Below are positions 6,171-58,707 of a DNA stretch of 64,000 nt, in pieces. The stretch's first letter is position 1. The number at the start of each line of letters is the position of its first letter. Below the pieces are notes generated by a model. That model was not told the DNA's origin and ran no database searches. It saw nothing but the letters and a program-made list of their open reading frames with translations. A program made the translations under genes and the position numbers. Origin of the DNA: Candidatus Magasanikbacteria bacterium RIFOXYB2_FULL_38_10 (GTDB taxonomy: Bacteria > Patescibacteriota > Patescibacteriia > Magasanikbacterales > UBA10003); contig MFQT01000016.1 of assembly GCA_001783145.1 (NCBI GenBank), positions 3,796-67,795 on the forward strand, given 5' to 3'.

Positions 6171-8210
6171 ATGCCCCAATTTAAGATTAAAGTCAAAATT
6201 AAGCCAGCTGGAGACCAACCTCAAGCCATTGAAAAATTATCCCAAGGGTTGCAAAAAGGATACTCCGCGCAGACCTTGCTTGGCGTCACCGGCTCTGGCA
6301 AAACCTTTACCGTTGCCAATGTAATTGCCAAAACAGGGTTGCCCACTCTTGTAATTGCCCACAACAAAACTTTGGCCGCCCAGCTCTGTAATGAATTTCG
6401 TGAAATTTTTCCGGATAACGCCGTGGAATACTTTGTTTCCTATTATGATTACTACCAACCAGAGGCCTACCTTCCCTCTTCCGATACCTACATAGAAAAA
6501 GAAGCGATGATCAATCAAGAAATTGATCGCTTGCGCCATGCCTGCACCCAAGCACTACTCTCCCGCCGTGATGTTATTATCGTCGCTTCTGTTTCCGCCA
6601 TTTATGGCTTGGGCTCACCCAAAGAATATGAAAAAATTGTTTTGCATTTAAGACGCGGCCAAAAACTTAGCCGACGCGAAATGCTAGAACAACTTATTGA
6701 AATGCAATTCACCCGCACTAATAGTGAATTGAAACGCGGCTCTTTCCGCCTAACCGGACAGGTTTTTGAAATTATGCCGGTGAATGAAGAAATGATCTAT
6801 CGTTTTGAAATTGGCGAAAAAATAAATTTGATTGAACTGGTTGACCCACTTACTCGCCAAATAAAAAGAGAACTGCCCGATGCTTGGTTTTTCCCTGCTC
6901 GGCATTATGTAGCCAGCCCCGAGTCGCGAGAAATGGCTTTTAAAAGTATCCGCCAAGAACTGGAACAGCAGTTGCAACTATTTCAAAAACAAGGAAAAAT
7001 TTTAGAATACGAGCGCCTAAAACGCCGCGTTAATTACGATTTGGAACTCATTAAAAATATAGGTTATTGCAATGGCATAGAAAACTATTCTCGTCATTTT
7101 GAGGATCGCGCTACCGGCGAGCCACCTTTTACGTTACTGGACTATTTTAAAGAAGGTACTGGAAAATTTTTAACTGTGCTCGATGAATCCCACGTGACAG
7201 TTCCGCAAATCCGCGCCATGTATAGTGGAGACAAAGCCCGCAAAGATATTTTGGTAGAGCATGGCTTTCGCCTCCCCTCTGCACGTGATAATCGGCCCCT
7301 AACCTCTGATGAGTTCAACCAAAAGATTGAGCAAGTAATTTATGTCTCCGCCACGCCAGCCGAATTTGAAATCCAAAATAGTGAGCAAGTGGTGGAACAA
7401 ATTGTCCGCCCCACTGGTTTAATTGATCCGGAAATAATCATCAGCCGAATTACTGGAAAAGGAAAAGAAAAATCACAAATTGAAGATTTACTGATTAGAA
7501 TTGACGAACGCATTGCCAAAAAAGAAAGGGTTTTGGTCACCACACTCACTAAAAAAATGGCAGAAGATTTATCCGATTATCTGCTAAAGAAAAAAATTAA
7601 AGTAAAATATTTGCATAGTGGTATTGATACTTTGGAACGCATTGAAATTATTACCGCCTTGCGCAAAGGTGAGATTGATGTGATTGTGGGTGTGAATTTG
7701 CTTCGCGAAGGATTGGATTTGCCAGAAGTTACACTCGTGGCCATTTTAGACGCGGACAAAGAAGGATTTTTGCGCAGCCGCACCAGTTTAATTCAAACCA
7801 TTGGTCGCGCCGCCAGAAATGTCAACGGCCAAGTTGTTATTTACGCCGACCAAATCACTGAATCCATTAAAATAGCAGTTGGAGAAACAGAAAGACGCCG
7901 CGAGATTCAGATCGCTTATAATAAAAATCATGGTATCACACCTAAAACAATTGAAAAAACCATCCGCAACATTTTGGAAGAATTTGGCATCACCGCCAAA
8001 GCCAAAGTCCCTAAAAGACGCACGTTATCAGAAACCACCAAGTTGGATATTTTAGGAGACGGCCGACCGGTGACGGAAATCATCAAAGAAAAAGAAAAGC
8101 TGATGCGCGAGGCGTCGGCGGAATTGGAATTTGAATTAGCTGCTATTTTGCGCGATGAAATAAGTGAACTTAAAAAAATAAATGCGACCGCGCAAAAGGC
8201 TAAAAAATAA
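6171..8210 (+). CDS. uvrB: excinuclease ABC subunit B
   Basis: Walker A GVTGSGKTFT and the UvrB blocks YFVSYYDYYQPEAY and LLREGLDLPEV, with a C-terminal UvrB/UvrC-interaction motif (AILRDEISELKK). ATG at 6171 is in frame with the longer listed ORF. Confidence 0.9.
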   Translation: MPQFKIKVKIKPAGDQPQAIEKLSQGLQKGYSAQTLLGVTGSGKTFTVANVIAKTGLPTLVIAHNKTLAAQLCNEFREIFPDNAVEYFVSYYDYYQPEAYLPSSDTYIEKEAMINQEIDRLRHACTQALLSRRDVIIVASVSAIYGLGSPKEYEKIVLHLRRGQKLSRREMLEQLIEMQFTRTNSELKRGSFRLTGQVFEIMPVNEEMIYRFEIGEKINLIELVDPLTRQIKRELPDAWFFPARHYVASPESREMAFKSIRQELEQQLQLFQKQGKILEYERLKRRVNYDLELIKNIGYCNGIENYSRHFEDRATGEPPFTLLDYFKEGTGKFLTVLDESHVTVPQIRAMYSGDKARKDILVEHGFRLPSARDNRPLTSDEFNQKIEQVIYVSATPAEFEIQNSEQVVEQIVRPTGLIDPEIIISRITGKGKEKSQIEDLLIRIDERIAKKERVLVTTLTKKMAEDLSDYLLKKKIKVKYLHSGIDTLERIEIITALRKGEIDVIVGVNLLREGLDLPEVTLVAILDADKEGFLRSRTSLIQTIGRAARNVNGQVVIYADQITESIKIAVGETERRREIQIAYNKNHGITPKTIEKTIRNILEEFGITAKAKVPKRRTLSETTKLDILGDGRPVTEIIKEKEKLMREASAELEFELAAILRDEISELKKINATAQKAKK

Positions 8211-29120: not shown

Positions 29121-29486
29121 ATGAATTTGTATTACAAAAAAGTAAAGGACAAGGGACGGGGAGTATTTTCTAAAAACAAAATTACAAAAGGGACAATAAT
29201 AGAAGTATGTCCAGTGATTCCCCTATCTAAAAAAGAATTAAAGTTTATAGAAAAAACTCGTTTGGACAAATACTATTATTGCTGGGGAAAAGGATTTAAA
29301 GAAGGATCTTTGCCTTTAGGTTTTGGCTTGCTTTACAACCATTCTTACCATTCCAACGCCAATTACAAATTTGATCTTAAAAAACAGACTATTACTTATT
29401 TTGCAGTAAAAAATATCCCCGCTAATGAAGAAATAACAGTGAATTACAATAGCAGTCCGGATGACGAAACACCATTTAATCTTTAA
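29121..29486 (+). CDS. SET-domain protein (putative protein lysine methyltransferase)
   Basis: LLYNHSYHSNANY resembles the SET NHSCxPN motif, and EEITVNYN resembles the SET E-L-T-x-D/NY motif. The size (121 aa) is typical of minimal bacterial SET proteins. Confidence 0.55.
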   Translation: MNLYYKKVKDKGRGVFSKNKITKGTIIEVCPVIPLSKKELKFIEKTRLDKYYYCWGKGFKEGSLPLGFGLLYNHSYHSNANYKFDLKKQTITYFAVKNIPANEEITVNYNSSPDDETPFNL

Positions 29487-29569: not shown

Positions 29570-30568
29570 ATGAATATTGCCGATGCCTTGCGACAATTCC
29601 TAGAATACTTGGAAATCGAAAAAAATCGTTCACCTAAAACCGTGCACAACTATGAATTTTATTTGCAACGTTTTATAAACCAAACCGATATAAAAAATCC
29701 GGCCGATATTACCTTAGAAGTGGTACGTCAATTTAGACTTTGGCTACATCGCCAAAAAGAAGCCACTGCCGGCAGAGAAATCAAAACCTCCACTCAAAAC
29801 TATCATTTAATTGCTCTGCGTTCCTTTTTAAAATACCTTTCCAAACGCGACATTAAAACTTTGGCTCCGGAAAAAATAGAATTAGCTAAAATGCCGGAGC
29901 GTCAAATTTCTTTTTTAGAGGGCGGTGATTTGGATAGATTTTTAGAGGCGCCCCTGCAAAAAAAGACAGCGGGGAAAAGCGGAGAACTTATTAAATTGCG
30001 AGATAAAGCTCTTTTAGAAATGCTTTTTAGCACAGGACTCCGCGTCTCCGAATTAGCTAATCTTAAAAAAGACGACATCAACCTAAACAAAGAAGAGTTC
30101 TCCGTTCGCGGCAAGGGTGGAAAGATACGCGTGGTATTTTTAAATAATCAGGCTAAATACTGGCTTAAAAAATATTTGGACAGCCGGCAGGATATGAGTC
30201 CTTTTATTTTTGTGCCGCTGGACAGGGCGGAAAAGGGCAGGGAAAAGCAGGAAGGGAGAGAACGAGCCGGCGGGGTCTTGATTAAACTTGGAAAAAATGA
30301 TAAAATAATGGCCAATGGCTTAACTCCCCGTAGCATTCAAAGGATGATAGAAGGATACGCCCGTGCCGCCGGTATTACCAAAAAAATTACGCCCCATGTC
30401 TTGCGCCACAGTTTTGCCACTGATTTACTGCACAATGGAGCGGATATTAGAAGCGTGCAGGCCATGCTGGGTCACTCTTCCATCACCACCACCCAAATTT
30501 ATACCCACATTACAGATAAAGGCTTAAGAGACGTTTACAAAGCCTTTCATGGCAAAAAAAGAGGATAA
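29570..30568 (+). CDS. tyrosine site-specific recombinase XerC/XerD family
   Basis: N-terminal SAM-like core-binding domain, and a catalytic domain with R...HxxR...Y (LRHSFATDLLHNGADIRSVQAMLGHSSITTTQIYTH). It contains a Lys/Glu-rich insertion. Confidence 0.85.
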   Translation: MNIADALRQFLEYLEIEKNRSPKTVHNYEFYLQRFINQTDIKNPADITLEVVRQFRLWLHRQKEATAGREIKTSTQNYHLIALRSFLKYLSKRDIKTLAPEKIELAKMPERQISFLEGGDLDRFLEAPLQKKTAGKSGELIKLRDKALLEMLFSTGLRVSELANLKKDDINLNKEEFSVRGKGGKIRVVFLNNQAKYWLKKYLDSRQDMSPFIFVPLDRAEKGREKQEGRERAGGVLIKLGKNDKIMANGLTPRSIQRMIEGYARAAGITKKITPHVLRHSFATDLLHNGADIRSVQAMLGHSSITTTQIYTHITDKGLRDVYKAFHGKKRG

Positions 30569-30575
30569 AAATTAT

Positions 30576-30647
30576 GGCTCCGTAGTTCAATGGATAGAAC
30601 GAGGGACTTCTAATCCCTAGATCAAGGTTCGATTCCTTGCGGAGTCA
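30576..30647 (+). tRNA. tRNA-Arg (anticodon TCT)
   Basis: Cloverleaf parsed by eye. Acceptor GGCTCCG/CGGAGTC, D-stem GTTC/GAAC, anticodon stem AGGGA/TCCCT with loop CTTCTAA, T-arm CAAGG-TTCGATT-CCTTG. 72 nt with no encoded CCA. Confidence 0.85.
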
Positions 30648-30860
30648 AGAAAAAAAGCTCATTAATTTATGGGCTTTTTTTGTCTTTTTAAAAAATTTTT
30701 CAAAAAATTAGCAAAACTTACTTGACTTGTGGAAAACTCTGCGATAAAATTTATAGTGGATTGACGAAAAAAAATGAAAAGAGACATTATTGATCGCTAC
30801 CGGAGGAAGCAGATCACAAATTCTAATCCGCAAAACAAACAACTTACCTTTTTGATAACG

Positions 30861-30879
30861 GTCAATTTTTAAAATTGAC
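30861..30879. promoter_or_regulatory. perfect 9-bp palindrome GTCAATTTT-T-AAAATTGAC upstream of PP-loop gene
   Basis: Exact palindrome followed by T6. It could be an operator or a weak terminator. A TTGACT-17-TAAAAT promoter-like element lies at 30722..30750. Confidence 0.35.
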
Positions 30880-30945
30880 TTTTTTATTTTGGTTTCCTGA
30901 AGACCGACCAAGGATGACGCGGTGCGAAGTTGATTTTTTTTTAAA

Positions 30946-32310
30946 ATGAAAAACAAACAATTAAAAATAACAATTAAACAAAAAGATAACAGCTTTATAG
31001 TAAAAGCAAAAGATTTTTTTACTGCTAAAATTACTTATCCTAAAAATTTTTTTGACAACCAAGATGTAATTTCCCGTCAAAATTTAATAGCTAACTTTGC
31101 TTTTAATCGAACACGCCAGTTAGGTTTATATTTCCCTAAAATTAGCTATAATTACCCCAAACCAATTATCAAAAATTTTGTGGAGCAAGGAGTAAGACAA
31201 GACTTGCCTTATATAAATTACGATAAAAAAATAAAAGTTTCGGAACAAATCAAAACTTTTAACCAAACGGAAATAAAATTTACCAAAAAAAATGATTTTA
31301 ATCGTGTCGTACCCATTAAATCGCCGCTTAAAGATAACATTATTTTATCCATGTCTTTTGGCAAAGACTCTTTACTTTCTTATGCCTTATGCAAAGAAAT
31401 TGGCTTGGACCCCAAATTAGTTTTTATTAATGACATGGCCACTTGGAATCCCCAAGAAGCCGTGCTTAAGCACCAAATAATGAAAAATTTCGGTGAAGAC
31501 CAAAAAAAAGAAATCTTATTTGTAGAAGACAATAGCGATGACATTTACGATAAAAAAAATTTAAAAAATATTAATGAAGATTTAGCCGCCACCAATGCCA
31601 TGTTGGCTTTTGCGTTGCAGTTGATTCCTGTAGCCTATCATTACCGCGCCAAATATATTATGTTTGGTAATGAAAAAAATCTTGATGATTATTTTATTGA
31701 CGGAGAAAATTTTAAAACCTACCTTTCCAGCGATCAATCCACCACTTACATGCGCGGACAGAATAAGTATCTCAACCTTTTAACCGAGGGCAATATCAAA
31801 GTAATAAGTATTATAAAACCGCTCTTTAATTTGGCTGAAATGCAGATAATTAACCATCGCTACCCTTATTTGTTCAAATATTTAATGTCTTGCACCTCCC
31901 AAAAAATAACTACGGAAAAAGGCTGTTGCAACTGTATTACCTGTGCCTGGACTTATCTTTATGGCCAGGCTTTGGGCTACGATCCGCGCAATTTAGGCTT
32001 AAAAGCTAACATGTTTGAAAAAAAATATCGTCGACATTTTGTACTCTTTAATAAAAAAATGGATGTGGTCTCAGAAGTTGTACCCAACGCTCACGATGAA
32101 CAATTACTGGCTTTTTTAATGGCCATGCGCCGGGGCGGCAAGGGATATTTAATCAATGAATTTAAAAAACACTTCTTAAGCGAAGCCTTAAGAAAAGAAA
32201 AAAAACTACGCCATAAATTTTTTGGCATTCATTCCGCGGAAATGATTCCAGAGGAATACAGGGAAAAGATACTTAATATCTATAAACAAGAGTTGCATCA
32301 TCTGCGCTAA
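30946..32310 (+). CDS. PP-loop ATP pyrophosphatase superfamily protein (PAPS-reductase/TtcA/DndC-like) with CxxC cluster
   Basis: ILSMSFGKDSLLSYAL resembles the SFSGGKDS PP-loop of the PAPS-reductase family. A later GCCNCITCAW Cys cluster is present. The N-terminal domain of about 130 aa is unrecognised. Confidence 0.5.
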   Translation: MKNKQLKITIKQKDNSFIVKAKDFFTAKITYPKNFFDNQDVISRQNLIANFAFNRTRQLGLYFPKISYNYPKPIIKNFVEQGVRQDLPYINYDKKIKVSEQIKTFNQTEIKFTKKNDFNRVVPIKSPLKDNIILSMSFGKDSLLSYALCKEIGLDPKLVFINDMATWNPQEAVLKHQIMKNFGEDQKKEILFVEDNSDDIYDKKNLKNINEDLAATNAMLAFALQLIPVAYHYRAKYIMFGNEKNLDDYFIDGENFKTYLSSDQSTTYMRGQNKYLNLLTEGNIKVISIIKPLFNLAEMQIINHRYPYLFKYLMSCTSQKITTEKGCCNCITCAWTYLYGQALGYDPRNLGLKANMFEKKYRRHFVLFNKKMDVVSEVVPNAHDEQLLAFLMAMRRGGKGYLINEFKKHFLSEALRKEKKLRHKFFGIHSAEMIPEEYREKILNIYKQELHHLR

Positions 32311-32315
32311 ATTAT

Positions 32316-33308
32316 ATGAAAATTGCCATTACATCCAATTTAAGAACCCGGGAAACCGAGGATCAGGCGGAATTTGATTCTTTGGAAACAATTGATTTTA
32401 TGTCCCGGAATTTAAAAGACCTGGGCCACGAAGTTAAATTCATAGAATTGACCCGTCCGCTGACTGAAGTAATTAAGGATTTGCAAAATTATCAGCCGGA
32501 TTTAATTTTTAACACCAGTGAAGGCACCAAAGGGAAATATCGCGAATCTTTTTGGCCGGGTATCTTTGAAGAATTAGGACTTATTTACACCGGCTCAGAT
32601 CCCTTTACACTAGCTTTAAGTTTAGATAAAAATCTAACCAAAGAAATAGTAGCTAAGCAGGGCGTACCAACACCCCGGGCAGAAATGGTTTACCCTGGTC
32701 TTTTACCCAGCTTAAATCATTTACATTTTCCCATCATCGCCAAGCCAAATTACGAAGGATCTTCTAAAGGAATCACCCAAGACAGCGTTATAGAAAATTT
32801 AGAAACATTGCAAAAACGTTTACCGGAGATGTTACAAAAATATCCGGATGGAATTTTAATTGAAGAATATATTTTTGGCAAAGATATCACCATTCCTTTC
32901 CTAGAAAACCTTGAGGATCCCATATTAGATGTGGTAGAATATGTTATAGATCCGGAATTTTCCAAAAAGATACGCTATCAAATCTATGATTACGAAATGA
33001 AAAATAATTTTTATGATAGTGTAAATATACAAATCGCTAATTTAGATGAAAAATTGCAACAACAAATTAAAGAAATATCCCAAAAAATAATTAAAGGAAT
33101 AAACTGCCGCGATTTAGGTAGAATGGATTTTCGCTTAACACCGGATGGAAAAATTTATTTCTTAGAAATCAACTGTCTGCCTTATTTAGATGAAGGAGTA
33201 AGTTTGTACCTCGCGGCGGAAAAACGAGGACTTAGCACTAAAGAAGTATTTAATCACATTATCCAAAGCGCAATTAAGCGCAAAACTCAAACCTTTTCCA
33301 GGGTTTAA
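32316..33308 (+). CDS. ATP-grasp ligase, D-Ala-D-Ala-ligase-like family (paralog 1)
   Basis: Ddl-like layout. The N-domain has an SEG...LGLIYTGSDP block in place of HG..GEDG..LGIPYVGS. The central KEIVAKQGVPTP and PIIAKPNYEGSSKGIT (ATP-grasp K/S motif) and C-terminal INCLPYL (metal-binding E/N) follow. Confidence 0.65.
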   Translation: MKIAITSNLRTRETEDQAEFDSLETIDFMSRNLKDLGHEVKFIELTRPLTEVIKDLQNYQPDLIFNTSEGTKGKYRESFWPGIFEELGLIYTGSDPFTLALSLDKNLTKEIVAKQGVPTPRAEMVYPGLLPSLNHLHFPIIAKPNYEGSSKGITQDSVIENLETLQKRLPEMLQKYPDGILIEEYIFGKDITIPFLENLEDPILDVVEYVIDPEFSKKIRYQIYDYEMKNNFYDSVNIQIANLDEKLQQQIKEISQKIIKGINCRDLGRMDFRLTPDGKIYFLEINCLPYLDEGVSLYLAAEKRGLSTKEVFNHIIQSAIKRKTQTFSRV

Positions 33309-33314
33309 ACTAAA

Positions 33315-34436
33315 ATGGAAACAAAAAAATTAAACTTGGCATTTGTCTACAATGTTCGCCATAAAAAACCTTGCCTTGCCGACGAACAAGCCGTAGCCGA
33401 GGCTGAATTTGACGAGCCGGTGACTATTAACGGGATTGCCCATTCTTTAAGAAAATTAGGCCATGAAGTATACCGAATTGAAGCTAATGAAGAGGCTTAT
33501 CTTAAATTAAAAAACCTAAAAAACAAGTTGGATTTGGTTTTTAATGTTGCCGAGGGCTTGCAGAACCATGACAGAGAAGCTCAAATTCCCGCCATGCTTG
33601 AGAATTTGAATATTCCCTATGTTGGTTCCAAGCCCTTAACGCAAGCACTGTGTTTAAACAAGGCTTACACCAAAAAAGTTTTAGCCTATCATCAAATAAC
33701 CACCCCCCGCTTCCAAATGTTTTACAATCCTAATGAGAAACTTTCTCGCAAAATGCGTTTTCCTTTAATTGTTAAGCCTGTTTCCGAAGGTTCTTCCAAA
33801 GGCATTACCAATGATTGTTTAGTGAACAATCAAATGGAATTATATAAAAAAATTGGCGAACTTATAGAAAAATTTAATCAACCGGCTTTGGTGGAAGAAT
33901 TTTTAAACGGACGAGAATTTACTGTTTCCTTGATTGGCAATGATCCGGTGGAAGTTTTACCACCTGTAGAAATTTTATTTGATCATTTGCCCAATAATTT
34001 GGCGCCTATGGATTCTTACGAAGTAAAATGGATAATTGATAATCCGGAAAGCCAAATCCAAACCATTTCCTGTCCGGCCCAACTTGATTATAAAAAGTTC
34101 CTACAAATTAAAAAACTTTGTTTAAGAACGAAGCAAGCTTTGGATATTTTAGATTGGTGCCGCATTGACGTGCGCATGGACAGCGAGGGTTGCCCGCATG
34201 TTTTAGAAATTAATCAAATTCCCGGCATTATTCCCGATCCTAAAGAGAACTCCCGCTTCCCCCTAGCCGCCAGAACGGCTGGCTATACTTACGAGGAGAT
34301 GATCCACAAGATCATTAAAGCGGCTTGTGACAGACACAACATTCCTCTTTCTCCGGCTTTAGAACCCGCACCGGAAAAAGCCACCAATTGGCTGGTAAAA
34401 ACCTTCTCTGGACAAAAAGCCTTTAAGCCGATATAA
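33315..34436 (+). CDS. ATP-grasp ligase, D-Ala-D-Ala-ligase-like family (paralog 2)
   Basis: Same architecture as the upstream paralog (AEGLQNHDREAQIPAMLENLNIPYVGSKP; LIVKPVSEGSSKGIT; LEINQIPGI). Confidence 0.65.
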   Translation: METKKLNLAFVYNVRHKKPCLADEQAVAEAEFDEPVTINGIAHSLRKLGHEVYRIEANEEAYLKLKNLKNKLDLVFNVAEGLQNHDREAQIPAMLENLNIPYVGSKPLTQALCLNKAYTKKVLAYHQITTPRFQMFYNPNEKLSRKMRFPLIVKPVSEGSSKGITNDCLVNNQMELYKKIGELIEKFNQPALVEEFLNGREFTVSLIGNDPVEVLPPVEILFDHLPNNLAPMDSYEVKWIIDNPESQIQTISCPAQLDYKKFLQIKKLCLRTKQALDILDWCRIDVRMDSEGCPHVLEINQIPGIIPDPKENSRFPLAARTAGYTYEEMIHKIIKAACDRHNIPLSPALEPAPEKATNWLVKTFSGQKAFKPI

Positions 34437-34449
34437 TAGCGCTACCCAC

Positions 34450-34524
34450 GGTGACTATGGTGTAGCGGTAGCACAGCAGTTTGTGGCACTGCTAGTGAGG
34501 GTCCAACTCCCTCTAGTCACCCCA
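34450..34524 (+). tRNA. tRNA-His (anticodon GTG) with G(-1) and encoded CCA
   Basis: G-1 at 34450. Acceptor GTGACTA/TAGTCAC, D-stem GTGT/GCAC, anticodon stem GCAGT/ACTGC with loop TTGTGGC, T-arm GAGGG-TCCAACT-CCCTC, discriminator C then CCA. Confidence 0.85.
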
Positions 34525-34628
34525 CCAGAAACAACCCCCTAAAAGGGGTGTTTTTGTTTGTAAAAAGCGCTATAATATAGGTACAAGTTGAAGATGCGGA
34601 GGTTATCAAATTATTAAAATAACAAGAT

Positions 34629-35511: not shown

Positions 35512-37050
35512 ATGAAAATTTGGCAAAAGCAAAATTTACTTCTGCTTCTGTTTTTTTTAATCGTGGCTGTCTATTTTAGCCTGCTTCAAGGATCGCCTCA
35601 TTTTGTCGATCCCGATTCTTTTTATCATGCCAAAATGGGGTTTTTAATGCAAAAAGATATAATCATTAAAAACTTCCCTTGGATTAAATTTGCGCCTTTT
35701 ACTCAAAATTTTACCGACCATCAATTTATTTATCATTTATTACTAATACCTTTCACTTTCTTTTTTTCACCCCTTTTAGGCACTAAAATAGCCGCCATCA
35801 TTTTGGCTGTAACGGCTTTTGCAATTTTTTATTTTTTCTTAAAAAAATGGCAAATAAAATATCCTCTTTTTTATATTCTCATTCTTTTAACATCCATTTC
35901 TTTTGTTTTTAGAATGAATTTGGCCAAAACTAGCTCCCTTTCTTTAATTATTCTTCTTTTAACGCTTAATTTTATCTGGCAACGCCGCTTTATCCCCTTA
36001 TTTTTAGCTTCTTTTGTTTATGTTTGGTGCTACGGCGGCTGGGGAATGCTTTTAGGGCTTATTTTTAGTCTAACACTGGGTGATTTAATTATTAATAAAA
36101 AAATCATTGGGAGTAACATTTTAGCAATTTTACTGGGACTGCTGGCCGGGATTATTATTAATCCTTATTTCCCCCATAATATTCAATTTTACTGGCAACA
36201 AGTGGTGCAAATAGGCCTGATTAATTATAAAGACCAAATAGCCGTAGGTATGGAATGGTATCCCCCGGATATTTTAAATTTTCTGGGCAGTGAAATTTTT
36301 ATATTCTTACTGGGGATATTGGCTCTTTTTTTATTTTTTATAAAAATTAAGACAAAAAAAAATAATAATTTAGAGGATGAGAGATCTCTCCACAAAATTT
36401 TTTCCAAAATCATTGGCTTATTTATTTTTGCCGGTCTGCTTTTTGTCCTAACTTTAAAATCCCAACGCTTTATAGAATATTTCGTACCTTTTAGTGTTTT
36501 AGCTTGCGCCTTTTTAATAAATTTTTCTTTGCCCAAAAATTTTTCCTTAAAAGAATCACTATATTTTTGGCTTACTAAAAATAAATATCTTAATAAAGCT
36601 TTTTTAGTTTATTTTTTAGCCATTATGGTTGGTTTTTTTTCTTTAAACAGCTTAAAATTAAACCAACAATTTACCTCGCGTTATAATTGGAACTATTTAA
36701 AAAATTCTTCCGCTTGGCTTAAAGAAAATACACCACCAAAAACAACTGTTTTTCACACCAGCTGGGCAGACTGGCCAATGCTCTTTTATCATAATTCACA
36801 AAATACCTATTTAAGCGGCCTAGATCCTACCTTTTTTTATTTAAAAGATAAAAATTTGTATAAAGAATGGATACAAATAGGCAATGGTCAAATACAAGAT
36901 AAATTAGATGAAAAAATTAAAAAAAATTTTAGCGCTAATTGGATTTTAATCAAGAACAATGAGATAAAGCTGTTAAAAGCAATCAAATCAAATGACAAAT
37001 TTTCTTTAGTTTACCGGGATGATGAAGCTCAAATTTTTTTTCTACGTTAA
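35512..37050 (+). CDS. large polytopic membrane protein, GT-C-type (PMT/ArnT-like) glycosyltransferase candidate
   Basis: About 12 TM segments with an acidic first-loop motif (HFVDPDSFYHAKMG) resembling the DxD/DE loop of GT39/GT83 enzymes, plus a C-terminal soluble domain. Confidence 0.4.
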   Translation: MKIWQKQNLLLLLFFLIVAVYFSLLQGSPHFVDPDSFYHAKMGFLMQKDIIIKNFPWIKFAPFTQNFTDHQFIYHLLLIPFTFFFSPLLGTKIAAIILAVTAFAIFYFFLKKWQIKYPLFYILILLTSISFVFRMNLAKTSSLSLIILLLTLNFIWQRRFIPLFLASFVYVWCYGGWGMLLGLIFSLTLGDLIINKKIIGSNILAILLGLLAGIIINPYFPHNIQFYWQQVVQIGLINYKDQIAVGMEWYPPDILNFLGSEIFIFLLGILALFLFFIKIKTKKNNNLEDERSLHKIFSKIIGLFIFAGLLFVLTLKSQRFIEYFVPFSVLACAFLINFSLPKNFSLKESLYFWLTKNKYLNKAFLVYFLAIMVGFFSLNSLKLNQQFTSRYNWNYLKNSSAWLKENTPPKTTVFHTSWADWPMLFYHNSQNTYLSGLDPTFFYLKDKNLYKEWIQIGNGQIQDKLDEKIKKNFSANWILIKNNEIKLLKAIKSNDKFSLVYRDDEAQIFFLR

Positions 37051-37077: not shown

Positions 37078-38667
37078 ATGAAACGTCAAGAATGGATTTT
37101 TATCTCTATTATTTCCGGACTACTAATTATTATCACCGCCGTCCCCTATCTTTACGGTTGGCTGATGACCCCTCCCAATTATTCTTTTTTGGGCAACGGA
37201 TTCTTTAACTCCCACGACAATCATGTTTATTATGCTTATATAGAACAGGTCAAGGCTGGTCATTTTTTATTAAAAGACGTCTTCACATCGGAAACACAAA
37301 AACCATTTTTAAATATATTCTGGTTACTGGCCGGATTGCTGGCCAGCTTTTTTCATTTAGGACCAATTTTTACTCTTCATTTTTTAAGAATAATTTTAAT
37401 TCCGCTTTTTGTTATAATAGCTTACAAATTTGCCTTGTTAGCTTATGAAAATGATGCCAAAAAAGAATTAAAAATAAGGTTAGCAATTTTGTTTTTATTT
37501 TTTACCGCCGGATTTGGCGGTTTAATTTGTTTATTTAACAAAAATTTTTCCTCACCTTTGGAAGTTTGGTGGCCGGAAGCCTATGCTTTTTTAAGCAGTT
37601 ATTTTTCACCTCATTTTATAGCTTCCTGGACCTTATTATTACTCTCTTTTTATTTCTTAATTAAAGGGTTGAAAGAAAACAGTTATAAAAAAATTTGTTA
37701 TGCGGGTCTCTTTGGGCTTTTTTTAATTCAATTTCACACTTTTTATTTAGCTTTAATCGCCCCCGTAAGTTTAATTTTTCTTATTTACTCTAAAAATTTA
37801 ATCAAGGATGCGGTTAAAAAAATAATTTTGTATAATTTATTTTTTGTTCCGGCCGTAGCCTATTATTTTTTTATGATTGCCAGTGATGAAGTGATGGGGC
37901 AAAGATTATTTAATAATTTAATGCTCACTCCTAATTCACCGACTAAAATTATTTTAGCCTTTGGCTTAATCATCCCCTTAGCCATAATAGCTTTTTTAAA
38001 TTTGCTTAAAGAAAAAAATAATTTAGCAAAAATTTTCTTAAATATTTGGTTTATCAGTGTGCCATTTTTAATACTCTCTAAATTACCTTTCGAAAGAAGA
38101 TTGATTGAAGGGTGGCAATTTCCAGCTATAATCTTAGCCGTGGATTCAATTTTTCTCATTAAAAATAAATTTGCGCCCTTTAAAAAAATATCTGCTTTAA
38201 TTTTTAACAGACTAACTTTTTTCTTAATATTTATTTTTCCACTTATTTTTATTTATTTTATTTTATTTAATGTCTATTATAATCCCGGGGAAAGGCAATT
38301 TTATCTACCTAATGAAGTAAAAGATTCGCTGGTCTGGTTAAAAAATAAGGGAACTTACGATGATATTGTTTTATCTTCCACTTACACCGGACTGGCGGCC
38401 GCTTTTATGGCGGATAAAACTGTTTTTATTGGGCATGGTTTTGAGACTCTTGATTCAAGAAAAAAAATGAAACAGATGGCATGGTTTTTTCAAACCAACA
38501 CAGAAGACGATTTAAAAAAAGAAATGCTCAAAAATTGGAATATTAAGTACTTAATTTTTGGTCCTTATGAAAAGGCGCTCAATTCAATCTATGAACCGGA
38601 TCAAAAAAAATATTTAACAAAAATTTACAGCCAAAAAGGAGTAGAAATTTACCAAACTGCCAATTGA
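37078..38667 (+). CDS. second large polytopic membrane protein, GT-C-like
   Basis: Architecture matches the upstream gene (multi-TM core plus C-terminal globular domain), so likely a paralogous glycosyltransferase. Confidence 0.4.
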   Translation: MKRQEWIFISIISGLLIIITAVPYLYGWLMTPPNYSFLGNGFFNSHDNHVYYAYIEQVKAGHFLLKDVFTSETQKPFLNIFWLLAGLLASFFHLGPIFTLHFLRIILIPLFVIIAYKFALLAYENDAKKELKIRLAILFLFFTAGFGGLICLFNKNFSSPLEVWWPEAYAFLSSYFSPHFIASWTLLLLSFYFLIKGLKENSYKKICYAGLFGLFLIQFHTFYLALIAPVSLIFLIYSKNLIKDAVKKIILYNLFFVPAVAYYFFMIASDEVMGQRLFNNLMLTPNSPTKIILAFGLIIPLAIIAFLNLLKEKNNLAKIFLNIWFISVPFLILSKLPFERRLIEGWQFPAIILAVDSIFLIKNKFAPFKKISALIFNRLTFFLIFIFPLIFIYFILFNVYYNPGERQFYLPNEVKDSLVWLKNKGTYDDIVLSSTYTGLAAAFMADKTVFIGHGFETLDSRKKMKQMAWFFQTNTEDDLKKEMLKNWNIKYLIFGPYEKALNSIYEPDQKKYLTKIYSQKGVEIYQTAN

Positions 38668-38674
38668 TTTAATT

Positions 38675-39382
38675 ATGTCTTTAATCAACATTACAATTCC
38701 TGTTTTTAACGAAGAAATTATTTTAGAATCCAGTCTTAAAAAATTATCTGACTTTTGCGCTAAAAGTTTAAAAGACGACTGGTTTATGGTGGTGGTTAAT
38801 AACAATTCAACGGATGCCACAGCTTTAATTTGTAAAAGAATATCTCAAAACAATACCCGCATTAAATGCCTTAATCTGCCTCAAAAAGGCAAGGGCTTGG
38901 CCATTCAGGAAGGTTGGCAAAGTTTTTCCGCTGACTATTACATTTTTATGGATGCTGATTTAGCCACAGATTTGGAGGCCTTGCCAAAAATGATAGAGGA
39001 ATTAAAAAAAGGAGCCCCTGCAATAATTGGTTCACGCCGCTTGCCCCTTTCCCAAGTAGAAAGATCCGTATTACGCGATCTTGTTTCTTTAACTTATTTA
39101 AAAATAGCTAATTTAATGCTTAACCTTAAGTTAAGCGATTTAGCCTGCGGTTTTAAGGGAGTAAACAACGAAATTAAAGAAAAAATACTGCCCAAGATAA
39201 AAGACAGGGCTTGGTTTTGGGACACAGAAATGCTTTTTTGGGCCAAACGAGCGGGATTTAAAATAAAAGAAATCCCGGTCATTTGGACCGAGACTCCTGA
39301 TCAAAAAAGAAAAAGCAAAGTGGGAATTTTAAAGGTGGGTTTTAAAAATTTTCTGTCACTGTTTAAAATCCGCTATTTATAA
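38675..39382 (+). CDS. GT2 polyprenol-phosphate glycosyltransferase (Dpm1/GtrB-like)
   Basis: ITIPVFNEE...VVVNNNSTDAT...FMDADL is the classic GT-A fold DxD of dolichol/polyprenol-phosphate mannosyl/glucosyltransferases. Confidence 0.75.
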   Translation: MSLINITIPVFNEEIILESSLKKLSDFCAKSLKDDWFMVVVNNNSTDATALICKRISQNNTRIKCLNLPQKGKGLAIQEGWQSFSADYYIFMDADLATDLEALPKMIEELKKGAPAIIGSRRLPLSQVERSVLRDLVSLTYLKIANLMLNLKLSDLACGFKGVNNEIKEKILPKIKDRAWFWDTEMLFWAKRAGFKIKEIPVIWTETPDQKRKSKVGILKVGFKNFLSLFKIRYL

Positions 39383-56860: not shown

Positions 56861-58150
56861 TTACAGATTAATCTTTTTACCTTCTAACTCTTCTATTTTC
56901 TTTTTCAATTCAATCATTTTTAACTCCCTACCTGATAAAATTTTATTAAGTCTTTCCACTTCCTCTAACTCTTGTTCCAAATTTTCCCTGGTTCTTTTCA
57001 AATCTTTTGTCCTATCTTCTACTTTTTGCTCCAAATTTTCATATGATTCTTTTAATTTAACTACCATCTCATTAAAAACTTTAATCAAAAAACCCATTTC
57101 ATCTTTTCTATTATAGCGGCTAGCAACAAAAATCACTTCATCAAAATCGCTCTGTGATAATTTTTGGGCTACGCGCGATAAATACAAAAGAGGATTGATC
57201 AACCAACGAGAAAATAACAAAGAAATTATTAAAACCGAAATTTCGGTAATAATAAAAATAATTAAAAAATAATTAAAAAGTTGCTTGAGCGGTTGATAAG
57301 CCTCATCTCTATTAATTTTTACCACCAAACCCCAATCTGCTCTAAGCGCATATCTGGTAGCCGCTATTACAGGAGTTCCTTTATAGTCAACAATATTATT
57401 TTCAACCAACAGAGTCTCGTGTCCGTTAGTTGCCGGTACGATGGGGACATTAATTTTATCTTTCGTGACAATACGAGTTAAAGAAGCATTAGGATCAAAA
57501 CGCGTAGGGGTAACAAAAAGCGCATCACCCTCTTTATTTTTTTGGGCTATCAGCATTTCGCCGGTTTCTCCTAAGCCAATAAAATCACTGGTGATTTTAA
57601 GCACTGGATCAAAAAAATTTATAACGGCAATAAAACCAATATTTTGATTATCTAAAATCAAAGGCGCAGTAAAAAGAAAACGAGGAATATTATCTACATC
57701 TTTAAAAATACCCTGGTATTTTTCTTTTTCTTGCGGACTTTGAAGCAGAGGCCACAGAGCCTTGTTCTTCTCTATCTCAGAATCGGTAGAGACAACTAAC
57801 CTATTTTCTTTGTCAAAGACAGAGATTGATTGAATTTCAGAAACGACCAAAGAAGCATCTCTAATAATTTCGTAAATTTTGTTCAAATTTTGCTGATCTT
57901 TATTTTTAGAATAATCTTGGAGATTAGTTTTTAAACTGGTGCGGGAACTGGTTAATTTTAAAATGTTAAAGTAAGAATTTAAAACCTCATTTATTTCTTG
58001 TTTTTTGGAATTGGCTAAAGAAATTAATTGTCCATTAACTTGATTGGAGATGGTGTCACGCATTTGCCAATAAAATAACGCGGTGATAACAATGAGAGGT
58101 ACGATGGTAATACCCACTAATAATAAAATAAGTTTGGTAAAAAATTTCAT
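56861..58150 (-). CDS. membrane sensor-domain protein (Cache-like periplasmic domain + HAMP + coiled coil) lacking a catalytic output domain
   Basis: TM1, then a periplasmic domain of about 250 aa, then TM2 (LIIFIITEISVLIISLLF) and a HAMP-like region, ending in a heptad coiled coil (LKESYENLEQKVEDRTKDLKRTRENLEQELEEVERL...). There is no HisKA/HATPase or MCP signalling domain. Confidence 0.5.
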   Translation of the reverse strand: MKFFTKLILLLVGITIVPLIVITALFYWQMRDTISNQVNGQLISLANSKKQEINEVLNSYFNILKLTSSRTSLKTNLQDYSKNKDQQNLNKIYEIIRDASLVVSEIQSISVFDKENRLVVSTDSEIEKNKALWPLLQSPQEKEKYQGIFKDVDNIPRFLFTAPLILDNQNIGFIAVINFFDPVLKITSDFIGLGETGEMLIAQKNKEGDALFVTPTRFDPNASLTRIVTKDKINVPIVPATNGHETLLVENNIVDYKGTPVIAATRYALRADWGLVVKINRDEAYQPLKQLFNYFLIIFIITEISVLIISLLFSRWLINPLLYLSRVAQKLSQSDFDEVIFVASRYNRKDEMGFLIKVFNEMVVKLKESYENLEQKVEDRTKDLKRTRENLEQELEEVERLNKILSGRELKMIELKKKIEELEGKKINL

Positions 58151-58608: not shown

Positions 58609-58707
58609 GTGGGTATACGAAAGTATACCCACGAAATGAGGGGCAAAATGAATAAATTTTTTTATTCATTTTCTCCGAATGAGCGGATATATGGAACATA
58701 TATCCGC
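58609..58707. other. structured intergenic segment with three strong hairpins
   Basis: GTGGGTATAC-GAAA-GTATACCCAC (10-bp perfect stem with GNRA loop, 58609..58632). GAATAAA-TTTTT-TTTATTC (58651..58669). GCGGATATAT-GGAAC-ATATATCCGC (10-bp perfect stem, 58683..58707). Confidence 0.6.

Follow-up and report, generated by a model that had tools for sequence, protein, structure and literature searches.

The cassette described here, three genes in a 64-kb window of contig MFQT01000016.1 (the window being the whole stretch of DNA that was analysed, 64,000 nucleotides) from Candidatus Magasanikbacteria bacterium RIFOXYB2_FULL_38_10, a low-GC bacterium of the Candidate Phyla Radiation (CPR), is best explained as a chromosomal operon for the assembly, independently of non-ribosomal peptide synthetases, of a small pseudopeptide that probably contains a β-amino acid. 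We hold this explanation with a confidence somewhat above even, and we infer function throughout from sequence, predicted structure and gene neighbourhood. The first gene (G1) encodes a PP-loop ATPase that belongs to the QueC superfamily, while the second and third (G2 and G3) encode ATP-grasp ligases with the fold of D-alanine-D-alanine ligase (Ddl). An earlier note on this DNA, referred to below as the original prediction, had combined adenylation by the PP-loop enzyme with acyl-phosphate formation by the ATP-grasp enzymes in a stepwise formation of amides. This is still the best reading, and it is now backed by conserved neighbourhoods in other genomes.

Searches with G1 found nothing in NCBIfam at E<=0.01 and no PDB match by sequence; its sole Pfam match, to a phage tail domain, stayed below threshold and at chance level (16.9 bits, the cut-off being 27). 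G1 is thus not a standard TilS, QueC or TtcA enzyme, an identity that would have spoken against the original prediction. The family to which it belongs forms about 91 clusters when grouped at 90% identity, and not one of these has a meaningful name, with members from Patescibacteria, Omnitrophota, Woesearchaeota, Nanoarchaeota and other lineages. Representatives numbered 190 at E<=1e-30, 584 at E<=1e-10 and 1585 at E<=1e-3, and the distribution is patchy, the family being present in 327 of 185,579 species-level genomes.

The hallmarks of QueC are an SGGxDS loop and a C(x)8CxxCxxC cluster (PMC13082051), and in QatC the zinc ion is held by four cysteines whose spacing varies, with x19 between the first two (PMC13082051, PMC13279940). 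In G1, the SFGKDS loop at residues 137-142 and the cysteine cluster, both pointed out in the original prediction, were found (Table 1). An alignment of 37 diverse family members shows G139, K140, D141, S142, L143 and L144 of the loop to be invariant, as are all four cysteines (C316, C327, C330 and C333); further family motifs are GNE and a [DE]-Q-[ST] element within [YF]-P-x-[FY]-[DE]-Q-[ST]. Because the consensus SxGKDS and the C(x)10CxxCxxC cluster carry both QueC hallmarks, G1 can be placed among the QueC-superfamily PP-loop ATPases.

This placement is mirrored in the predicted structure. An AlphaFold2 model built on the family alignment (predicted local distance difference test score, pLDDT, of 93; predicted template-modelling score, pTM, of 0.92) predicts a QueC-like core between an α/β extension at the N-terminus and a helical one at the C-terminus. 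Foldseek matched the model to QatC from the QatABCD defence system (E 6.1e-4, 453 aligned columns, template-modelling (TM) score 0.41, root-mean-square deviation 8.3) and to Bacillus subtilis QueC (3bl5; E 8.2e-4, TMt 0.77 when normalised to QueC), with 2pg3 and Cap9 of the type IV cyclic oligonucleotide-based antiphage signalling system (CBASS) as other top matches. The original prediction had likened G1 to 3'-phosphoadenosine 5'-phosphosulfate (PAPS) reductase, TtcA and DndC; fold and cysteine motif point instead to the QueC superfamily, the PAPS-reductase model PF01507 did not match the window protein (three of the 37 members were matched weakly, best E 0.016), and the fold matches to TtuA (TMq about 0.2), MnmA and ThiI were much weaker. 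In addition, the family profile aligned the PP-loop weakly to MJ0690 and PH0300 (E 0.3-0.5). When modelled alone, the N-domain (pLDDT 89) had no significant PDB relative (best E 0.008, TM 0.3-0.45), with QatC absent among the matches listed, and it displayed a weak RNase-H/uS11-like topology.

G1 also departs from QueC where the substrate would be read. The QueC model PF06508 did not match the window protein and matched three of the 37 family members weakly (best E 1.2e-5), and one homologue of G1 carries a precomputed match to this model. In QueC, the motifs YxQxHxxE, VPxRN (with R99) and YPDC are essential for turnover of 7-carboxy-7-deazaguanine (CDG) (PMC13082051), and a Tyr/Asp pair reads the 7-deazaguanine ring in both Cap9 and QueC (PMC13279940). 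The consensus of the G1 family lacks all three motifs and has no clear equivalent of the Tyr/Asp pair; at the corresponding positions, which were equated by the order of secondary-structure elements and not by structural superposition, it carries D-x7-E, TN, GNE and [YF]P-x-[FY]-[DE]-Q-[ST]. Activation of a carboxylate by ATP followed by attack of ammonia or an amine is the demonstrated chemistry of QueC and Cap9 and the proposed one of QatC (PMC13279940). On its predicted fold, G1 is the founding member of an unannotated family within the QueC superfamily rather than a canonical QueC.

G2 and G3, for their part, gave matches to Dala_Dala_lig_C (104 and 117 bits, respectively), and their best family and PDB matches are all Ddl or Van ligases, with identities to Ddl structures of about 28-30%; G3 additionally matches the L-amino acid ligase BL00235 (3vot, E 1.6e-9). 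Yet both score below the curated Ddl models, with 149.6 bits for G2 and 168.1 for G3 against a cut-off of 243 for NF002378, and 132.4 and 144.0 against 245.65 for TIGR01205. Residues of the two proteins are discussed in the numbering of E. coli DdlB, whose sequence was verified against 1IOV. In a MAFFT alignment both keep the equivalents of K97, K144, S150, S151, E180, K215, R255, D257, E270 and N272, and alignment of G3 with DdlB by hhalign confirms K215, R255, D257, E270 and N272 (K238, R283, D285, E298 and N300 of G3).

The positions around the substrate are different. As the original prediction had proposed, the HGRGGEDG loop of DdlB lies opposite deviating sequences, SEGTKGKYRES in G2 and AEGLQNHDREAQ in G3. 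Profile alignment of the G3 clade gave E80 in place of H63, W239 in place of Y216 and S313-R314 in place of S281-L282, all of them invariant or nearly so, together with a four-residue insert and D-R-E in place of GEDG. In G2, H63 is likewise replaced by glutamate, Y216 falls in a gap and S281-L282 becomes V-S. Around E15 of DdlB, which binds the amino group of D-Ala1, MAFFT places L/V in G2 and G3 and hhalign leaves the region unaligned; the GG-S-E-EVS segment of DdlB appears to be replaced by N...AEFD, in which F32 and D33 are invariant and AEFD might supply an acid. These alignments show G2 and G3 to be Ddl-fold ATP-grasp ligases whose ATP/Mg catalytic core is intact and whose substrate pockets have been remodelled, which agrees with the earlier claim that neither is a bona fide Ddl.

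The two ligases were originally taken as a pair of paralogues. Both are indeed Ddl-type ATP-grasp enzymes, but at 33% identity to each other they are only deep paralogues, with different histories. A neighbour-joining tree (one outgroup, no bootstrap) places G3 within a clade of ligases that are fused to a KamA-family aminomutase (loci L020 and L079) or lie next to one (L006, L007, L042, L074, L086 and L087), at 44-64% identity, and its nearest relatives beyond L005, the locus closest to the window, are L042 and L074 (63%), both in operons of the order G1, G3-like ligase, KamA. G2 groups solely with its counterpart in L005. Members of the G3 clade occur in Woesearchaeota, Aenigmarchaeota, Bathyarchaeia and Thorarchaeota, and annotation pipelines label the relatives 'D-alanine--D-alanine ligase'. 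Judged from these sequences, G2 is a lineage-specific paralogue and G3 a member of a widespread, conserved clade.

The association of G1 with such ligases recurs well beyond this genome. Eighty genome loci were fetched with the G1 profile and four came from exact look-ups, giving 82 non-redundant loci in which neighbouring open reading frames (ORFs) were called, clustered and then classified by domain; a same-strand ATP-grasp gene within about 6 kb of G1 was counted as a partner. At least one partner was present in 44 of the 82 loci, with one to four ATP-grasp domains each, and short contigs make these linkage counts underestimates. By domain of life, partners were present in 23 of the 32 bacterial loci and in 21 of the 50 archaeal ones, the labels of loci from metagenome-assembled genomes (MAGs) being in part doubtful. 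The linkage between G1 and ligases lies far beyond chance and is conserved across domains of life. Reciprocally, searches started from G3 homologues found G1 genes directly downstream in two of four long-contig loci, and KamA in a third.

Further enzymes accompany this pair. A radical-SAM amino-acid 2,3-aminomutase of the KamA family, which passes TIGR00238, is found in 15 loci; its nearest model is AblA, with 450-509 bits where the cut-off is 525, and the EpmB model is also among its matches. A LysA-like pyridoxal-phosphate-dependent decarboxylase is found in 20 loci, where it scores below the lysA cut-off and has FslC (N-citrylornithine decarboxylase) as its second-best model, a GNAT acetyltransferase in eight, three of them fused to a ligase, and an MsbA-type ABC exporter in some. 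The typical order in CPR bacteria is G1, a fused double ligase (807 aa) bearing a LAL_C2 domain, an ATP-grasp_3 gene, the decarboxylase and, in some cases, the exporter, and some CPR loci have G1, a G3-type ligase and KamA. In DPANN archaea two ligases precede G1, which is followed by an optional third ligase, the decarboxylase and KamA; in Bathyarchaeia the order is G1, ligase, GNAT. Two woesearchaeal loci carry a fusion of about 700 aa that joins Radical_SAM and LAM_C domains to a G3-type ligase (L020 3966-6077, L079 281-2386), a Rosetta-stone link suggesting that the ligase uses the aminomutase product. In some loci G1 occurs as a tandem G1-G1 pair, and such duplications fit G1 as one ligase module among several. 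Since homologues of KamA, the decarboxylase, GNAT and the third ligase are all missing from the 64-kb window, the cassette is a reduced version of a modular cluster that occurs in CPR bacteria and in archaea, those of DPANN among them. G2 holds the operon slot that KamA takes in the nearest related operons.

Small SET-domain proteins were counted in six loci, and SET genes were seen in or beside the G1 clusters of L005, L015, L019, L020, L021, L022 and L079. They belong to two subfamilies and lie in or beside G1-ligase clusters of CPR bacteria and Woesearchaeota (L005 6223-6588, L015 4159-4575, L019 6308-6745, L020 6077-6481, L022 7566-7979, and L079 4851-5504 and 6093-6503). Because the SET family is broad (851 clusters) and neither of two loci sampled in reverse from SET was linked to G1, SET is at most an optional accessory and was rejected as a specific partner. 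The SET gene of the window may be an accessory of the system, its membership being uncertain.

Several other arrangements around G1 were observed. In Bathyarchaeia, ligase-GNAT fusions stand next to G1 in L051 (2907-4337), L060 (9610-11025) and L061 (9370-10974), a separate GNAT gene follows downstream in L075, L080, L082 and L083, and genes for a threonine-synthase-like PALP enzyme and an Lhr helicase are invariably found nearby. In two loci without ATP-grasp genes (L072 1305-8459, L084 167-7327), a tandem G1-G1 pair is followed by genes for a DUF1611 protein, a diaminopimelate (DAP)-epimerase-like protein, an MgtE-like protein and an Nramp transporter, a context in which D-amino acids or DAP are possibly involved. 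In five bathyarchaeial loci (L046, L048, L050, L055 and L062), also without ATP-grasp genes, G1 is preceded by an ABC-2 transporter ATPase and permease and a radical-SAM/DUF1848-like gene, in that order, and followed by genes for two small unknown proteins.

Taken as a pathway, G2 and G3 would activate carboxylates as acyl-phosphates (ATP to ADP and Pi) and join amino acids, and G3 would probably handle a β-amino acid of the KamA type, such as β-lysine. G1 would adenylate a carboxylate (ATP to AMP and PPi) and pass it to ammonia or an amine, thereby capping or extending the product with a further amide. In fuller clusters the product may also be decarboxylated, acetylated or methylated, and exported. 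The LysA-like decarboxylase, the GNAT and SET enzymes and the ABC exporter of these clusters point to a small and probably cationic pseudopeptide, which is perhaps exported.

A number of observations weigh against this explanation. The 64-kb window holds no homologue of KamA, the decarboxylase, GNAT, the exporter or the third ligase and, as it is without KamA, the link of G3 to a β-amino acid comes solely from orthology; the neighbour-joining tree has a single outgroup and no bootstrap. No ATP-grasp partner was seen nearby in about 38 of the 82 G1 loci, some of which are on short contigs; G1 can therefore work without these ligases. The domain labels of some MAGs, taken from record titles, may be wrong. 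Finally, the extensions of G1 recall those with which QatC holds its partner, and this would favour a macromolecular substrate.

This last point leads to the alternatives in which G1 acts on a protein or an RNA. In a protein- or peptide-modifying system, G1 would join an activated carboxylate to a target protein, at its N-terminus or at a lysine, as Cap9 does and QatC is proposed to do; the ATP-grasp ligases would build or extend the group so attached, which SET or GNAT enzymes would modify further. QatC is the sole full-length structural match of G1 and has the same layout of N-terminal extension, core and C-terminal helices; its C-terminal extension and a core loop bind its partner QatB, and both extensions are needed for defence (PMC13279940). 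SET domains, moreover, mostly act as protein-lysine methyltransferases and are found repeatedly in the clusters, KamA-type enzymes make β-lysine for elongation factor P (EF-P), with the EpmB model among the matches noted above, and many archaeal G1 genes stand alone beside genes for ribosomal proteins, RNA polymerase or aminoacyl-tRNA synthetases. Against this, the TM-score to QatC is just 0.41, the N-domain modelled alone has no significant structural relative and lacks QatC among its listed matches, no conserved non-enzymatic partner gene emerged from the 82 neighbourhoods, the small ORF in the leader of the cassette is not kept beyond L005, and LysA/FslC-like decarboxylases and ABC exporters suit small molecules better. 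We regard protein modification as unlikely. Modification of tRNA or rRNA, in which G1 would adenylate a base, as TilS, ThiI and MnmA do, and attach an amine or a ligase-made peptide, appears very unlikely. PP-loop enzymes of the superfamily often modify tRNA, TtuA, MnmA and ThiI are among the weaker fold matches, the cassette lies between two tRNA genes, some archaeal homologues adjoin translation genes and the N-domain is weakly RNase-H/uS11-like; but the N-domain matches are not significant, G1 has no recognisable THUMP, PUA or TRAM domain, the tRNA bracket is confined to the lineage of the window, and so patchy a distribution is unlike that of a core decoding function. A bolder combination of ideas, which we consider rather improbable, would make G1 a new branch of the QueC scaffold, namely a conjugating ligase; the Ddl-like ligases would make a β-lysine-type pseudopeptide, and G1 would attach it to a macromolecule, at a protein terminus, a lysine or an RNA base. 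If true, CPR bacteria and DPANN archaea would have a type of modification not seen before, parallel to deazaguanylation by Cap9 but with an acyl group that is not a nucleobase.

The remaining alternatives draw on the ancestry of the ligases and on the position of the cassette. Were G2, G3 or both real D-Ala-D-Ala (or D-Ala-D-X) ligases, divergent housekeeping enzymes of peptidoglycan synthesis, G1 might amidate the stem peptide. Their closest relatives and the annotation of their homologues fit this idea, as does the lack of any further Ddl-like gene in the 64-kb window, and the acid of AEFD could replace E15, in a region where the alignment is unreliable. Nevertheless, the scores lie far under the curated Ddl cut-offs, the exchanges at H63, Y216 and L282 and the inserted loop are fixed in the G3 clade, that clade is present in the archaeal groups named above, and the fusions to KamA or GNAT point to other substrates. 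No mur or fts genes lie near the cassette, at the four G3-type loci sampled on long contigs or among the recurrent neighbour families checked. The original prediction had already argued against peptidoglycan synthesis, and both the sampled loci and the occurrence in archaea bear it out; we consider a peptidoglycan role very doubtful indeed. Least probable, and very unlikely, is that the cassette is cargo of a mobile element or defence island at a tRNA gene, possibly anti-phage and related to QatABCD or type IV CBASS. A tyrosine recombinase and tRNA genes do flank it, two defence proteins are among the closest structural relatives of G1 and the taxonomic distribution is patchy. However, PADLOC models gave no match to the three cassette proteins even at E<=1, on which ground a defence system was rejected, and QatA, QatB, QatD, CD-NTase and TGT-like proteins were not among the recurrent neighbour families checked. 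The hallmarks of a genomic island were similarly rejected, as neither att-like repeats nor a shift in GC content was found, and the recombinase is Xer-like and not phage-integrase-like.

The layout given by the original prediction, with three genes separated by 5-6 nt, a tRNA-Arg/tRNA-His bracket and an Xer-type recombinase upstream, was recovered in full by ORF calls, ARAGORN and profile models (Table 1); the G1-G2 gap is 5 nt and the G2-G3 gap 6 nt. Its interpretation as a typical integration context did not hold up. The closest locus, L005, from a Candidatus Magasanikbacteria MAG, encodes proteins 73% (G1), 80% (G2) and 88% (G3) identical to those of the window and has the same order of gyrA, SET, xer, tRNA-Arg(tct), G1, G2, G3 and tRNA-His(gtg), with both tRNAs in identical positions. 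No direct repeats above chance flank the cassette, its GC content (0.31-0.41) resembles that of the flanks, and it is surrounded by housekeeping genes: gyrA, prs, miaA, miaB, ftsH, the gene for ribosomal protein S1, uvrC and a pilB-like ATPase gene. Other G1-ligase operons are not flanked by tRNA genes. For these reasons the bracket is a lineage-specific position and not evidence of mobility.

Table 1. Features of the cassette and its immediate surroundings (positions in the window).
Feature	Position	Strand	Basis and remarks
Small SET-domain methyltransferase	29121-29486	+	SET 57 bits; separated from the cassette by xer and tRNA-Arg
Tyrosine recombinase (xer)	29570-30568	+	Phage_integrase 142 bits; upstream of tRNA-Arg
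tRNA-Arg(tct)	30575-30648	+	ARAGORN; Rfam tRNA 72 bits; upstream boundary, context and not a functional part
Promoter-like element TTGACT-17-TAAAAT	30722-30750	+	Consensus scan, 10/12 matches; candidate promoter of the three-gene operon
Leader ORF	30774-30872	+	32 aa (MKRD...TVNF); stop codon within the palindrome loop
Palindrome and T-run	30861-30890	+	Palindrome itself 30861-30879, GTCAATTTT-T-AAAATTGAC, perfect 9+1+9
G1 (gene 1)	30946-32310	+	ORF, 454 aa
PP-loop S137-F-G-K-D-S142 of G1	31354-31371	+	Family consensus SxGKDSLL; putative ATP pyrophosphate-binding loop
Four-Cys motif C316-x10-C327-x2-C330-x2-C333 of G1	31891-31944	+	Predicted QueC-type Zn site
G2 (gene 2)	32316-33308	+	ORF, 330 aa
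G3 (gene 3)	33315-34436	+	ORF, 373 aa
tRNA-His(gtg)	34451-34524	+	ARAGORN; downstream boundary, context and not a functional part

Both the palindrome and the promoter-like element noted in the original prediction are present upstream of G1, and both are kept in L005. There, the promoter-like element is almost identical in spite of diverged flanking leader sequence, and the palindrome is retained with a 1-nt deletion in the loop, the sequence between the two having diverged. The palindrome and T-run could form a terminator- or attenuator-like hairpin or act as an operator. The window contains 13 perfect hairpins whose arms are 9 nt or longer, and Markov simulations gave 4.7 +/- 2.2; one palindrome with 9-nt arms is therefore not rare in itself. 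This is a roughly 2.7-fold excess across the window, and five such hairpins cluster near the tRNA-Met and tRNA-Gly genes (57580-57599, 57704-57723, 58610-58631, 58648-58669 and 58684-58706). The leader ORF has a counterpart in L005 that also ends ...TVNF and differs by one in-frame 3-nt indel (leader region 7823-7978 of that locus); none was found in the other loci. It might encode a leader peptide or serve as a translation-coupled attenuator, a suggestion with weak and lineage-specific support, and a family-wide precursor or leader peptide was rejected, given that the counterpart is limited to L005. A riboswitch in the leader of about 190 nt was likewise rejected, since Rfam gave no match beyond the tRNA and the whole leader folds no better than shuffled sequences (z = -0.55).

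In the immediate flanks, terminator-like hairpins lie 3' of both tRNA genes (30650-30681 after tRNA-Arg, 34534-34549 after tRNA-His). The recombinase scores 235 and 231 bits with the XerD and XerC models, just below their cut-offs, and 229 bits with the XerA/integron-integrase model, above its cut-off of 220, and appears to be the genome's only Xer. An insertion of about 40 residues (about residues 205-245, rich in K, E, R and G) splits its alignments to the XerC and XerA models in two. Downstream of prs, two large polytopic membrane proteins without a Pfam match (35512-37050 and 37078-38667, + strand) are followed by a family 2 (GT2) glycosyltransferase (38675-39382, + strand); in L005, counterparts of both membrane proteins come directly after tRNA-His, without prs.

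The three-gene cluster and its relatives appear to be undescribed: literature searches on QueC-like enzymes with ATP-grasp ligases, on DUF6395, and on aminomutases with ATP-grasp ligases found no description of such a cluster. CPR and DPANN organisms have very small genomes with few recognisable pathways, so that a conserved multi-enzyme cluster with a high cost in ATP probably yields a product that matters for their way of life. This product could be, among other things, a cationic pseudopeptide or a substitute for polyamines, an osmolyte, a molecule for the cell surface or for export, or a modification group. For the QueC scaffold, G1 would represent a fourth context after preQ0 synthesis, Cap9 of CBASS and QatC, and one that is invisible to the current Pfam model. 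Furthermore, the label 'D-alanine--D-alanine ligase' is carried in these phyla, archaea included, by many genes of a distinct clade, in which the pocket is remodelled and the ligase is repeatedly coupled to a KamA-type aminomutase, in two cases by fusion. Ligation of a β-amino acid followed by amide formation by a QueC-like enzyme is thus put forward as a testable hypothesis.

By descent, the cassette proteins stand closest to the QueC superfamily (G1) and to the Ddl clade (G2 and G3). G1 shares with QueC, QatC and Cap9 the Rossmann-like PP-loop fold, the SGGxDS-type loop and the C-terminal C(x)nCxxCxxC motif of four cysteines, and with QatC in particular the extensions on both sides of the core; by analogy, adenylation of a carboxylate and formation of an amide would also be shared. 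It differs from QueC in escaping PF06508, in the replacement of YxQxHxxE, VPxRN and YPDC, in a cysteine spacing of x10 and not x8, and in that the partners queD, queE and tgt were not seen beside it. Unlike QatC and Cap9, it is accompanied by neither CD-NTase nor Cap10, qatA, qatB or qatD among the recurrent neighbours checked and has no PADLOC match, and no structure in the PDB is significantly related to its N-domain. A 2026 survey of the QueC family does not include this family in the clusters that it describes. G2 and G3 have the ATP-grasp fold of the Ddl and Van ligases, which are their closest sequence relatives, and conserve the residues for ATP/Mg binding and phosphoryl transfer; they are set apart by scores of 132-168 bits against cut-offs of 243-246 and by the pocket changes, with H63 replaced by glutamate, Y216 by tryptophan in G3 and by a gap in G2, and L282 by arginine together with an insert in G3. 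The archaeal members of the G3 clade, the lack of mur/dcw context at the sampled loci and the fusions of its relatives to KamA and GNAT distinguish it further.

By mode of action, the closest systems are presumably the peptide pathways that work with ATP-grasp ligases, independently of non-ribosomal peptide synthetases, together with a PP-loop amidotransferase, as for dapdiamide and N-acetylglutaminylglutamine amide (NAGGN). Dapdiamide is made with the ATP-grasp enzyme DdaF and the PP-loop amidotransferase DdaH, NAGGN with the ATP-grasp/GNAT enzyme Ngg and the PP-loop amidotransferase AsnO, and pathways of the L-amino-acid-ligase type employ BacD/YwfE, RizA/RizB or TabS. With these the cassette has in common the stand-alone ATP-grasp ligases in one operon, the adenylating PP-loop enzyme and, in fuller clusters, GNAT and an exporter. 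In contrast to DdaH and AsnO, G1 is QueC-like, with a zinc-type cysteine motif, and not asparagine-synthetase-like, and G2 and G3 belong to the Ddl clade and not to that of BacD, in hosts that are CPR, DPANN and other uncultured lineages. Related clusters also resemble the AblA/AblB system, which synthesises N-epsilon-acetyl-β-lysine, in that their KamA is closest to AblA and some include a GNAT, as in ablAB. The window itself has neither gene and, unlike in AblAB or in EpmAB, which attaches β-lysine to EF-P, the aminomutase of the related clusters is coupled, in two cases by fusion, to an ATP-grasp ligase instead of to AblB or the lysyl-tRNA-synthetase-like EpmA, with a QueC-like enzyme added.

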